IMG/VR virus record: IMGVR_UViG_2645727743_000027
Origin: a virus
Taxonomy: Duplodnaviria > Heunggongvirae > Uroviricota > Caudoviricetes
Strand: one strand, 5' to 3'
Length of the DNA stretch: 7,777 nt
The notes below the pieces were generated by a model, which did not search any database, was not told the origin of the DNA, and worked only from the letters and a program-made list of their open reading frames with translations. Made by a program: the position numbers and the translations under genes. Positions 4,415 to 5,297 of this stretch are shown one piece after another (the stretch's first letter is position 1; each line of letters begins with the position of its first letter).

Positions 4415-4975
4415 ATGGATAAGAAAAAAGGCGGAGCGGATCAGGTGGTTATAGTGATGACCTACAAGCAAGCCCTGCGCGTCGCCGCACGTGAGTCGAA
4501 AGCCGTCCGTCGTTCGCTGGTCGACAAACTTGAATCAATGCAACAGCAGTTGCAACAAAAAACGACCACGAAGAAATCACCGGATGGCCTTGAAGAATTC
4601 CGTAAGGCACGCGCATTGAAAATGACCGTCGACACAATGAAAGACCTCTTCGACTTCCTCCCTCACCTCGCACCGGAAGCTAAACAGGTCGTTGCCGCCA
4701 GCCTGATTAATCCCGTCGTCGGCTTTAGTGCAATCCCTCTTCCGGTCATTGATGAACATCACTACTCTGCGTCGGAGGTTGGCACCATGCTTGGCATTTC
4801 AGCCAACAAGGTAGGGCGCATTGCCAACACCTACATGCTCAAAACAGAAAAGTACGGGAAGTGGTTCATCGACAAATCGGCGCACAGTGACAAGCAGGTC
4901 GAGACATTTCGCTACAACGAGGCGGGAGTGCACAAGATCGAGGAACTCATCGAAGGAGAACGAAAGGCTGCATGA
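4415..4975 (+). CDS. Hypothetical protein, 186 aa (Ea22-sized; predicted coiled-coil middle and helix-turn-helix-like C-terminal segment)
   Basis: Long ORF with protein-like composition, in the position where lambda carries ea22 (182 aa); I cannot confirm homology from memory. No canonical Shine-Dalgarno directly upstream; a perfect palindrome sits at 4390-4412. Confidence 0.65.
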   Translation: MDKKKGGADQVVIVMTYKQALRVAARESKAVRRSLVDKLESMQQQLQQKTTTKKSPDGLEEFRKARALKMTVDTMKDLFDFLPHLAPEAKQVVAASLINPVVGFSAIPLPVIDEHHYSASEVGTMLGISANKVGRIANTYMLKTEKYGKWFIDKSAHSDKQVETFRYNEAGVHKIEELIEGERKAA

Positions 4976-5054
4976 TTTTGACAAGATAGTTTTCCCCAAA
5001 TCTGGGGGAAAAGACCGAATGGCGCGGCTTACAGCAAGATAAAGACCACATGAT

Positions 5055-5084
5055 TTGACAAATCCGCATTAACGGGGCTATATT
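5055..5084 (+). promoter_or_regulatory. Predicted sigma70 promoter: TTGACA (5055-5060), 18-nt spacer, TATATT (5079-5084)
   Basis: Consensus -35 hexamer and 5/6 -10 hexamer with 18-nt spacing, in an otherwise non-coding region upstream of the AntA-like gene. Confidence 0.4.
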
Positions 5085-5122
5085 CCGCTTCATGGTGCTG
5101 AACACACCTTGCAAAGCGGAAA

Positions 5123-5150
5123 CCGCACCCGTCAGTCATGCGGCTTTTTT
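5123..5150 (+). terminator. Promoter-proximal hairpin plus T-run (CCGCA-11 nt loop-TGCGG-CTTTTTT): possible attenuator or terminator of a roughly 60-nt RNA
   Basis: 5-bp stem at 5123-5127/5139-5143 followed by T6 at 5145-5150, about 55 nt downstream of the predicted start site. Confidence 0.3.
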
Positions 5151-5297
5151 ATGTCCATTTCTCAGATATGGTCGGGTAGCGCGTATACCGAAAAACAACC
5201 GAAAGGTTAAGGATACGGGCCGACTTTGCACGGTGTTCAAGTACCTGACCGCCCTGCTGAACACAGGGCTATCTGAACAAATGCAAAGGACATAAAA

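Follow-up and report, generated by a model that had tools for sequence, protein, structure and literature searches.

The gap of about 320 bp in front of an antirepressor gene, in the 7,777-nt stretch of viral DNA analysed here (the window, to which all coordinates refer), encodes a full-length member of the Rfam family sRNA-Xcc1. The family model (RF02221) scored 69.3 bits at 5170-5258 on the plus strand (gathering score 53, E = 2.1e-11), covering model positions 1-87 of 87, and the 3′ end of the RNA falls 39 nt before the start codon of the AntA-like gene. The gap is laid out in the order promoter, leader (boxes a1 and b1, then a weak hairpin with T6), sRNA, a2 and b2, and we consider it likely that together these parts form a self-contained module for RNA control, of the P1 c4 or Gifsy IsrK-C4 kind, built around the sRNA-Xcc1-family RNA. 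The family membership of the RNA, the anatomy of the gap, the three-way covariation of loop, b1 and b2, and the class of the regulated gene were all directly observed, and are described below. The original prediction was right to call the gap a structured non-coding region and missed the discrete sRNA at 5170-5258; the motif that it took for an inverted repeat lies inside this RNA.

In the Rfam fold the RNA is a three-way junction on the plus strand, with an outer stem (5170-5178 paired with 5242-5250), hairpin 1 (5182-5217) and hairpin 2 (5219-5234), followed by the 3′ tail GCCC (5251-5254). This fold is kept in the relatives, where the outer stem had at least nine consecutive pairs in 72 of 85 unique sequences, built from many different sequences; among alleles of the window type, compensatory changes turned A-U into G-C in hairpin 1 and G.U into G-C in the outer stem. 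For the window's RNA taken in isolation, the minimum-free-energy fold (-28.7 kcal/mol) differs from the Rfam fold (-22.3 kcal/mol). The ends of the RNA carry the hallmarks of an RNase P substrate, with U at -1 in 66/85 relatives (78%), G at +1 in 80/85 (94%) and a 3′ tail of the form R-CC-(C/A) in 67/85 (79%); the window itself has U at -1, G at +1 and GGU at the 5′ end of the sRNA.

RNAs of this family have been detected elsewhere. The founding member, in X. campestris, is an 88-nt RNA seen on Northern blot, with mapped ends (PMC2996969). For the EDL933 sister copy, annotated over 89 nt, the reported figures are 40,293 reads in RNA-seq and 290 ribosome footprints, with a ribosome coverage value of 0.02 (PMC5331693); the coordinate given there refers to AE005174 and is shifted by about 2.5 kb relative to the RefSeq record, and the two loci are presumably the same. 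The EDL933 copy, too, is followed by an Ant gene and comes with a matched set of boxes of its own. The RNA at 5170-5258 is likely to be the regulator of the module.

Two segments of the sRNA, b′ and a′, are each complementary to boxes both upstream (b1, a1) and downstream (b2, a2). Box b′ (CUUUGCA, 5224-5230) is the specificity loop, within the 8-nt loop of hairpin 2, and box a′ (GUGUUCA, 5233-5239) spans the 3′ side of hairpin 2 and the junction. Upstream, box a1 (TGAACAC, 5099-5105), the complement of GTGTTCA at 5233-5239, is held in a small hairpin (5094-5108, GGUG/CACC with CUGAACA in its loop), and box b1 (TGCAAAG, 5110-5116) is complementary to the hairpin-2 loop of the sRNA. Downstream, a hairpin GCCCUG/CAGGGC (5251-5269), again with CUGAACA in its loop, presents the first a2 copy (TGAACAC, 5258-5264); its counterpart in phage Nil2 reads CCCU-CUCAAAA-GGGG. 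A second a2-like copy (CTGAACA, 5273-5279) ends 2 nt upstream of box b2 (TGCAAAG, 5282-5288), which overlaps the Shine-Dalgarno sequence AAGGA (5286-5290), itself ending 7 nt before the ATG at 5298. All of these boxes are on the plus strand.

The repeated motifs of the original prediction were thus the a boxes, whereas the b boxes (TGCAAAG at 5110-5116 and 5282-5288, CTTTGCA at 5224-5230), which with b2 on the Shine-Dalgarno sequence are the most informative part of the gap, had escaped it. The direct copies of CTGAACA were found exactly where they had been placed, three in all, at 5098, 5257 and 5273; a count of three was also reached by 24 of 200 shuffles and is within chance. The inverted copy proved inexact, the exact inverted 7-mer being GTGTTCA at 5233-5239. 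The proposed pairing of about 5099-5116 with about 5224-5241 was recovered as arms 5104-5116 and 5224-5236, 92% complementary, and 5216-5244 formed with 5092-5122 a duplex of -27.3 kcal/mol, a value reached by 0 of 500 shuffles. The duplex of the sRNA with the downstream site is modest within the window (-16.8 kcal/mol, reached by 57 of 500 shuffles); the upstream a1/b1 is the stronger partner. When 5092-5310 was folded as a whole, the minimum-free-energy structure was dominated by a helix of about 5094-5120 with about 5217-5244 (z = -3.0; 0/200 shuffles). The significance of the boxes rests on their covariation across dozens of relatives and not on counts within the window.

For this, 73 distinct relatives from viral contigs served as the main set. 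The hairpin-2 loop of the sRNA is hypervariable, with 64 different loops among the 73 instances, and yet in 56 of the 73 the loop had matches of at least 6 nt in both of its flanks; 2000 permutations gave a mean of 3.75 such instances and a maximum of 10. Matches of at least 7 nt between loop and upstream flank were found in 73% of cognate and 3.9% of non-cognate combinations, and between loop and downstream flank in 63% and 2.5%, respectively. The junction behaved in the same way, matching upstream in 56% of cognate versus 6.3% of non-cognate combinations and downstream in 64% versus 5.5%, and a change of junction class in the sRNA goes with a change in a1 and a2. Box b2 of the phage relatives lies immediately beside GGAG or GGA. 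Four natural alleles of the window type (CUUUGCA, CUUGUAU, CUUUCGA and CUUGCUG) share an otherwise near-identical leader and have loop, b1 and b2 altered together. The chromosomal relatives from Xanthomonadales possess a1/b1 along with a strong terminator and are devoid of b2; ribosome-binding-site occlusion therefore cannot serve the whole sRNA-Xcc1 family. A 14-nt helix that could sequester the Shine-Dalgarno sequence (5146-5159 with 5285-5298, 93% complementary, -12.8 kcal/mol) was considered as a further family feature and rejected: the window and the Nil2 type do have it, whereas across the family the cognate mean (-4.49) equalled the non-cognate mean (-4.49) and was close to the shuffled mean (-4.26).

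The regulated gene is of the antirepressor type, spans 5298-5921 on the plus strand and encodes 207 aa with matches to AntA (1.6e-26) and P22_AR_C (1.9e-08); RefSeq labels the product 'phage antirepressor Ant'. A gene of the KilA-N/Bro-N/AntA/Rha/P22_AR_N/ORF6N kind lies downstream of the RNA in 73 of 76 phage copies (KilA-N 20, Bro-N 14, AntA 13, Rha 10, P22_AR_N 8 and ORF6N 8). Six sister modules, in Nil2, P13374, Aaphi23, phiSTEC1589 and F451 (two copies), all have an Ant/Rha-type gene whose ATG follows the RNA at 38-42 nt (6/6); in them loop and junction complement one site upstream and another adjoining the Shine-Dalgarno sequence, and all three vary together.

A sigma-70 promoter at 5055-5084 on the plus strand (TTGACA, 18-nt spacer, TATATT; 11/12 positions matched in the promoter scan) confirms the promoter proposed upstream of the AntA-like gene and predicts transcription from about 5091-5093. 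A promoter-like site was found at equal distance from b1 in 29 of 47 relatives, with 24-27 nt between the end of the -10 and b1, as against 0 of 47 control segments, and the promoter of the C4 module of phage Nil2 (CGGGGCTATATTC) is near-identical to that of the window. The duplicated motif around the promoter exists in both places, as CATGATTTTGACAA at 4971-4984 and CATGATTTGACAA at 5049-5061, although the copies are not exact repeats; because the first carries a 1-nt insertion, an ungapped search recovers CATGATTTGACAA only. It was correctly noted that only the second copy has a good -10, none being present at 4971-4985 in the promoter scan. The idea that the CATGATTT(T)GACAA pair are regulatory sites did not hold, the first copy (4971-4985, plus strand) being where the upstream pseudogene ends, its stop codon included. 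This copy moves together with the 3′ end of the pseudogene in relatives L005 and L088, and in other relatives the upstream genes are joined straight to the real promoter; by its sequence context, the first CATGATTTTGACAA copy is probably a vestigial module junction and not a working promoter. The promoter scan of 4800-5450 gave this one site, on the plus strand, and no promoter-like site on the minus strand, so the suggested analogy with P22 sar failed. In the Rfam search, neither C4 nor isrK was found upstream of the neighbouring gene at 4232-4975.

The leader segment (5092-5150, plus strand), which holds the hairpin of a1, box b1 and, ahead of a T-run, a terminator-like hairpin, is analogous to IsrK and c4-a1b1, and no Rfam family matched it at E<=1. 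The region 5040-5157 is about 82% identical to the leaders of Nil2 and P13374, and 5106-5157 has 87% identity with Aggregatibacter phage Aaphi23. The predicted hairpin with T6 is present at 5123-5150 (CCGCA at 5123-5127, loop CCCGUCAGUCA, UGCGG at 5139-5143, C5144 and U6 at 5145-5150) and is weak, with a 5-bp stem, an 11-nt loop and no call by the terminator scan; as 5092-5152 folds no better than its shuffles (z = +0.29), a strong terminator is not supported for the window. Among relatives, a stem of at least 4 bp set against a T-run downstream of b1 was found in 107 of 116, the stems comprising 35 distinct sequences and the loops sharing a conserved core YCCGNYA. These counts come from a per-sequence stem analysis, used in place of an alignment fold, since a consensus fold (RNAalifold) of 55 leaders aligned with MAFFT yielded no structure, the subclasses differing by 1 nt in the register of their helices. 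The element at 5123-5150 is probably a leaky terminator or an attenuator. Pairing of the terminator-loop core (CCCGNYAG) with the 5′ strand of the sRNA was also considered and dropped, as no covariation was apparent by eye.

For which way the regulation runs, which enzyme processes the RNA, what the leader does and what biological output results, we infer the following scheme. The promoter at 5055-5084 would be constitutive and start a transcript near 5092, whose first ~60 nt would contain the address boxes a1 and b1 and then the weak hairpin with its U-run (5123-5150). Transcripts that read through would carry the 89-nt three-way-junction RNA (5170-5258), a2/b2 and the AntA-like gene. The sRNA would be excised from this transcript, probably by RNase P at U5169/G5170, as happens for c4, and accumulate in the lysogen, where its b′ and a′ would pair with b2 and a2, block ribosome binding and keep the antirepressor silent. 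The a1/b1 element may compete for the a′ and b′ segments, whether inside the precursor (in cis) or as the short, terminated leader RNA acting in trans, and would then be an anti-antisense, as the short IsrK is; it may in addition influence termination at the hairpin of the leader. As the alleles differ in loop, b1 and b2 jointly, each module would recognise its own kind only, and this could confer immunity specificity, as in P1 versus P7. The suggestion of RNA control of the antirepressor in the manner of P1 c4 is thus sustained by anatomy and covariation, in a form that includes the sRNA-Xcc1 RNA and the b boxes overlooked before.

The same parts could also work purely in cis, with a1/b1 on a′/b′ freeing the ribosome-binding site and the sRNA-Xcc1 fold, together with a loop-b2 contact, hiding it. 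Such a switch is conceivable because the full 5′ UTR prefers the long-range a1/b1-a′/b′ helix, the one that rules the fold of 5092-5310 and whose region gives the -27.3 kcal/mol duplex, and the IsrK locus toggles between alternative cis structures A and B (PMC4825925). As a full account we find it improbable: a discrete species of 88-89 nt accumulates in X. campestris (PMC2996969), reads over the 89-nt annotation of the EDL933 sister copy are very high (PMC5331693), excision is suggested by the conserved ends (U at -1, G at +1, RCC(C/A) tail), and allele-specific boxes are more readily explained by discrimination in trans. The cis switch and the excised, trans-acting RNA are mutually compatible models. 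An attenuation of the P4 CI RNA type, in which the sRNA acts on nascent a1/b1 to set read-through and occlusion of the ribosome-binding site is secondary, is unlikely. It would account for a1/b1 followed by hairpin and T-run being the most widely conserved partner (107/116), and the only one in the Xanthomonadales cassettes, where the terminator is strong; the GCGG...CCGC...GCGG of the window permits competing hairpins, and the IsrK authors raised the same idea for STnc1160 (PMC4825925). However, the window's hairpin is weak and was not called by the terminator scan, the CCAAC/GUUGG subclass is devoid of a competing upstream hairpin, and the b2 of phage modules covaries and falls exactly on the Shine-Dalgarno sequence.

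As Rfam and the literature now label it, the RNA would be a trans-acting regulator of unlinked host or virulence genes, its place before ant being incidental; it was described as trans-acting, under HrpG/HrpX control and with predicted host or plant targets. That it acts only in this way seems very doubtful, since the variable loop and junction match sites within ~100 nt on the same transcript and 73 of 76 phage copies precede one functional gene class at a fixed distance, although the sRNA may have extra host targets besides its own transcript. Could the boxes instead be DNA operators for a repressor protein? Two direct and one inverted short motif around the promoter might be operator half-sites, and a strand-specificity test at the box edges, comparing G.U with A.C mismatches (105 vs 83 upstream, 87 vs 86 downstream), did not separate DNA from RNA. 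Yet the 'inverted' copies lie exactly in the loop and junction of an RNA fold supported by covariation, b2 adjoins the Shine-Dalgarno sequence and not the promoter, the boxes are downstream of the transcription start, and 64 different loops would need as many protein specificities, which makes operators extremely unlikely. A gap that encodes the 67-aa ORF at 5092-5295, as the original prediction had allowed, is refuted: the reading frame is open in the window, whereas it had no Pfam match, phiSTEC1589 is devoid of its ATG, the frame is broken in phiSTEC1589 and F451 by 1-2-nt length changes in hairpin 2 (in relatives 89-92% identical), and the EDL933 sister copy had a ribosome coverage of only 0.02.

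Papers on sRNA-Xcc1 treat it as virulence-linked, trans-acting and an orphan as to its targets, and it has been automatically annotated in many genomes, such as those of EHEC, Xylella, Haemophilus, Aeromonas and APSE phages; in our literature search, no paper was found that links it to control of the c4 type. The present evidence assigns it a concrete job, that of a c4-like lock on antirepressor-type genes, with targets a few dozen nt away. More broadly, we give roughly even weight to the view that Xcc1-type RNAs are not trans-acting virulence sRNAs and form a second, far more widespread lineage of c4-like 'addressable' lock RNAs in mobile elements, from Proteobacteria to Acidobacteria and Bacteroidota. 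In this lineage the hypervariable loop would co-evolve with the leader decoy and, in the case of phages, also with the ribosome-binding site in front of a KilA-N/Ant/Rha-type gene, yielding dozens of orthogonal specificities; the terminated leader would be the anti-antisense that sets the switch, and the Xanthomonadales variant, having no b2, would operate by attenuation alone. The module bears on the silencing of antirepressors in Stx and lambdoid prophages, hence on spontaneous induction and toxin release, and its allele-specific loops bear on how co-resident prophages avoid or exploit cross-talk. They also amount to a natural set of short orthogonal RNA-RNA address pairs, reusable as riboregulators, and the C4/IsrK design becomes one member of a broader class.

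The immI region of P1 and P7 has the order a1/b1 - c4(a′b′) - a2/b2 - icd - ant. Like the RNA of the window, c4 (Rfam C4, RF01695, clan CL00128) belongs to the leader of an antirepressor operon and is read from the strand of its target. It is also a three-way junction with outer stem, hairpin 1, hairpin 2 and a single-stranded junction, it ends in a tRNA NCCA-like 3′ tail and has a G after a pyrimidine at its 5′ end, and it exposes two boxes complementary upstream and downstream, with b2 on a ribosome-binding site; its allelic boxes, matched in their targets, are the basis of heteroimmunity in P1/P7. Cleavage of c4 by RNase P occurs at the 5′ end of the outer stem, at a GGW motif (PMC5320573). 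The two RNAs are nevertheless distinct: the Rfam models C4, c4-2, c4-a1b1 and isrK gave no match to the window at E<=1, and in L001, L002 and L004 the C4 and sRNA-Xcc1 matches lie at separate places, with no cross-hits. The outer stem has 9 bp in the window's sRNA compared to about 17 in c4, and hairpin 1 of sRNA-Xcc1 is longer than that of c4, with an internal loop AAUACAAYACC...GGGAAUA in most members. Furthermore, a hairpin with U-run stands between b1 and the RNA in the window, which has no icd-like small ORF, none of the icd/orf45 kind being found in the 39 nt between the sRNA and the ant ATG, so that b2 lies on the antirepressor gene's own ribosome-binding site; C4 modules of Stx phages likewise are devoid of an icd/orf45-like ORF.

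The Gifsy-1 locus isrK - STnc1160/orf45 - anrP (RF01394 followed by C4) has the succession of promoter, short leader RNA, processed RNA and antirepressor gene that is predicted for the window, and in both the leader is complementary to the downstream RNA; the terminator is read through in Gifsy, and in the window it is a weak predicted hairpin. The short IsrK activates translation of its own read-through mRNA, with the processed RNA STnc1160 downstream (PMC4825925), so that activation by the leader RNA is demonstrated there and would be expected here by analogy. The window differs from the Gifsy locus in having neither orf45 nor translational coupling. The CI RNA of satellite phage P4 (seqA - seqB - seqC) is a processed RNA from an untranslated leader that pairs with repeats on both of its sides (PMC4825925); its output is premature transcription termination of the replication operon and not control of an antirepressor ribosome-binding site, and the likeness drawn here is one of design.

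P22 immI resembles the window in the repression of an antirepressor at its ribosome-binding site at the RNA level, as would be the case here, but sar is an opposite-strand transcript overlapping the start of ant, whereas the window's regulator is on the strand of its target. The integron-cassette sRNA-Xcc1 of X. campestris, the founder of RF02221, has the same Rfam family and fold as the window's RNA, and the chromosomal Xanthomonadales copies also have promoter, a1 hairpin, b1 and terminator upstream of it. Unlike the window, these copies lack a2/b2 at the ribosome-binding site of the downstream gene, possess a strong terminator (CCCACC/GGUGGG) and precede symE (PMC12444791, preprint) or small uncharacterized proteins instead of Ant-type genes. 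In related Stx phages, the C4 modules that accompany sRNA-Xcc1 modules, used as a positive control, followed the same a/b logic, with the parts in the same order and an almost identical promoter. In Nil2, P13374 and phiSTEC1589, isrK/C4 and sRNA-Xcc1 modules stand in tandem, each before an Ant-type gene and each with a near-identical promoter.

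The 322-bp gap between an antirepressor-like pseudogene (4232-4975) and a gene whose product has AntA and P22_AR_C domains (5298-5921), in which RefSeq annotates zero features, contains a full-length sRNA-Xcc1 RNA (RF02221), identified by a scan of all Rfam families at positions 5170-5258 on the + strand (69.3 bits vs. a gathering score of 53). Every sequence feature named in the original prediction was found, including both copies of CATGATTT(T)GACAA, the promoter at 5055-5084 (11 of 12 positions match) and the complementarity of 5099-5116 with 5224-5241. The three direct copies of CTGAACA exist, but their count alone is within chance, and the proposed inverted copy needs correction, the exact inverted 7-mer being GTGTTCA at 5233-5239. 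A second repeated box had been overlooked, namely TGCAAAG at 5110-5116 and 5282-5288, whose complement CTTTGCA lies at 5224-5230. CTTTGCA is the hairpin-2 loop of sRNA-Xcc1, and GTGTTCA covers the 3′ side of hairpin 2 along with the single-stranded junction; the inverted motifs are part of the sRNA and not free-standing, and the direct box copies lie outside it, on either side. Upstream, a small GGUG/CACC hairpin holds TGAACAC (box a1, 5099-5105) in its loop, with TGCAAAG (b1) 4 nt further on. Downstream, TGAACAC (a2, 5258-5264) lies within the loop of a GCCCUG/CAGGGC hairpin and is followed by a second CTGAACA and then by TGCAAAG (b2), which overlaps the Shine-Dalgarno sequence AAGGA ending 7 nt before the ATG.

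The Stx phages Nil2, 2851 and P13374 share ~82% identity with the first 118 nt, comprising promoter and leader, and Aggregatibacter phage Aaphi23 shares 87% identity with a 52-nt portion of the leader. The sRNA-Xcc1 found in each relative phage (64-86 bits; two modules in F451) stops 38-42 nt short of the ATG of an Ant, Rha or antB gene. The hairpin-2 loop is different in every one of them and both flanking sites change along with it, as in Nil2 (loop CUACUUG, sites CAAGUAG and CAAGUAGGA) and Aaphi23 (loop CUGUUUG, sites CAAACAG and CAAACAGGAG). For a wider sample, viral contigs were scanned by exact pattern for the conserved hairpin-1 core, which gave 120 loci and 85 unique RNAs, with 73 distinct loop/junction combinations and 64 different loops. 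Each loop was then compared with its own flanks and with those of other loci, counting as a match any exact Watson-Crick stretch of 7 nt or more. The loop matched upstream in 73% of cognate vs. 3.9% of non-cognate pairs and downstream in 63% vs. 2.5%; for the junction the values were 56% vs. 6.3% upstream and 64% vs. 5.5% downstream. Matches of at least 6 nt on both flanks occurred in 56 of the 73 instances, compared to a permuted mean of 3.75 and a maximum of 10 (2000 permutations). Junction class and box switch as pairs (UUCGAA/UCGAAA, UUUGA/CUCAAAA, UACGAA/UUCGUAA, UCUGAA/UUCAGAA, UCUUAA/UUAAGAA), and in the relatives the downstream site adjoins GGAG or GGA, with the start codon next. Scanning again with the window's own variant of hairpin 1 yielded four alleles (CUUUGCA, CUUGUAU, CUUUCGA and CUUGCUG) that vary, besides compensatory stem pairs, mostly in b1, loop and b2.

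The regulated genes form a narrow class: 73 of the 76 distinct downstream proteins start with a KilA-N, Bro-N, AntA, Rha, P22_AR_N or ORF6N domain, and P22_AR_C is found in 22 of the 76. One such case, an ORF6N gene, was mentioned without interpretation in a paper on phage APSE.

The window itself covers the early-left arm of an E. coli prophage of the lambdoid, Stx-like type, with the lambda cIII thermoregulator at 812-870 (full length, 88.5 bits), then bet, exo and small genes before the pseudogene, and with xis, int and a host Sib RNA to the right of the AntA-domain gene; many E. coli chromosomes carry the same 451 bp at 100% identity. ORF186 (4415-4975) forms the 3′ portion of the 247-codon antirepressor-like gene at 4232-4975, a homologue of Stx2a_F451_08 in which no Pfam domain was found; it carries a nonsense change from TGC to TGA at 4325-4327, and RefSeq labels it a pseudogene with an internal stop. 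Directly after it, at 4990-5012, an 8-bp perfect hairpin, TTTTCCCC...GGGGAAAA, may mark a module boundary or serve as a bidirectional terminator; together with the following ~40 nt it is kept before several different sRNA-Xcc1 promoters (contigs L008, L076, L078, L096 and L110). At the right end, a full-length Sib antitoxin RNA (7541-7683, 137.6 bits) is flanked by a 103-nt direct repeat (7345-7447 and 7673-7775, 93% identical, 328 nt apart), and the expected place of the first Sib copy, ~7213-7355, overlaps the int 3′ end; therefore, the prophage may be integrated in or next to a tandem sib/ibs locus upstream of mdtA.

Of 47 relatives, 29 have a sigma-70-like promoter 24-27 nt ahead of b1, compared to 0 of 47 control segments. 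The hairpin followed by T6 predicted at 5123-5150 does exist as a 5-bp stem, but it is weak and the terminator scan makes no call there; the fold of the 61-nt leader transcript is no better than shuffles. Among relatives, 107 of 116 have, after b1, a hairpin that adjoins a T-run. Its loop (5128-5138 in the window) keeps the core YCCGNYA, more fully YCCG(A/U)(C/U)A(G/A), despite 35 different stems, which is unusual for a plain terminator; the search for a pairing partner of this core found none. Some contigs have two modules at short distance from each other (L085 7043-7309, L046 2286-2843, L167 5418-7287 and L005 1631-2256), and in L085 the next leader directly follows the first sRNA-Xcc1 copy without a gene between. 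In Xylella five copies ~385 nt apart were reported (PMC12189769), and arrays of gene-less modules may exist.

The founding family member was detected by Northern blot as an 88-nt RNA (PMC2996969). In EHEC EDL933, 40,293 RNA-seq reads and 290 ribosome footprints fall on the sole sRNA-Xcc1 annotation; its ribosome coverage value of 0.02 is on a par with the values tabulated alongside for CsrB and RNase P RNA (PMC5331693). In the EDL933 RefSeq record, an sRNA-Xcc1 module whose own boxes match each other (UUCUUAUUUGG / CAAAUAAG / CAAAUAAGGAGG) stands just upstream of an Ant gene; it is ~2.5 kb off the published coordinate, the neighbouring hok/sok locus is similarly offset, and we infer that it is the locus of the published counts.

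The comparisons establish membership in the family, the arrangement of the parts, the covariation of the two boxes with the upstream and downstream flanks, the overlap of b2 with the ribosome-binding site and the kind of gene that is regulated. The excised sRNA would pair with a2/b2 and block antirepressor translation in the lysogen. The leader a1/b1 may compete for the same sRNA segments, being the stronger partner (-27.3 vs. -16.8 kcal/mol for the downstream site), and/or control read-through at the leader hairpin. The 5′ end of the sRNA has U at -1 in 66 of 85 and G at +1 in 80 of 85 RNAs, and R-CC-(C/A), a tRNA-like discriminator plus CC, follows the outer stem in 67 of 85. A cis switch within the UTR is a possible alternative, because the fold of the full UTR favours a helix of a1/b1 with the loop and junction segments; the minimum-free-energy fold of the isolated sRNA differs from the Rfam fold. 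Further, the sequence after the T-run (5146-5159) is complementary over 14 nt to the Shine-Dalgarno/ATG region (5285-5298; 93%, -12.8 kcal/mol); this complementarity is confined to the E. coli and Nil2 subtypes, and in the family as a whole it does not exceed shuffled controls. Allelic loops would provide module-specific immunity, and since the module is located in the pL-direction operon, induction could flood it with read-through transcript.

Chromosomal modules were seen in contigs of Xanthomonas, Rhodanobacter, Lysobacter and Luteimonas (L128, L131, L137, L160, L171, L187 and others). These Xanthomonadales copies keep promoter, a1 hairpin, b1 and a strong terminator (CCCACC/GGUGGG plus U6), and a2/b2 are absent at the downstream ribosome-binding site. 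Because b2 is missing, ribosome-binding-site occlusion belongs to the phage branch and not to the family as a whole. The proteins that follow are mostly uncharacterised and small, with SymE once in the sample; many lack a Pfam domain, and several of those inspected share a G-Y-(F/Y)-L-P-E motif near the N-terminus.

The sRNA-Xcc1 family and the c4 principle are each already known; in the literature searched, neither a link between them nor the flanking address boxes is reported. An orphan, widely annotated RNA family would gain a specific, testable function. As summarised in PMC5320573, c4 of P1/P7 is excised by RNase P and its locus has the same layout as here: a1/b1 first, the c4 RNA carrying a′ and b′ in the middle, and last a2/b2, where b2 occupies a ribosome-binding site. 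The Gifsy-1 isrK locus also shares this layout; in that locus the leader yields a short terminated RNA that activates the translation of its own read-through mRNA, and the processed RNA STnc1160 lies downstream (PMC4825925). Nil2, P13374 and phiSTEC1589 carry an isrK/C4 module and an sRNA-Xcc1 module in tandem, each preceding an Ant-type gene; in Stx phages (L001 507-692, L002 614-801, L004 595-777) isrK/c4-a1b1 and C4 precede the first such gene and sRNA-Xcc1 the second. Both modules of these Stx phages share the promoter core CGGGGCTATATTC, pointing to either common descent or a swap of promoters, and the cognate test applied to their C4 modules recovered the known logic, with the same part order and a near-identical promoter. 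Since the Rfam scan gave no C4, c4-2, c4-a1b1 or isrK match in the window at E≤1, and hairpin 1 and the outer stem differ from those of the C4 clan, the RNA of the window is filed outside the C4 family, as a member of RF02221 that would work, by analogy, like c4.
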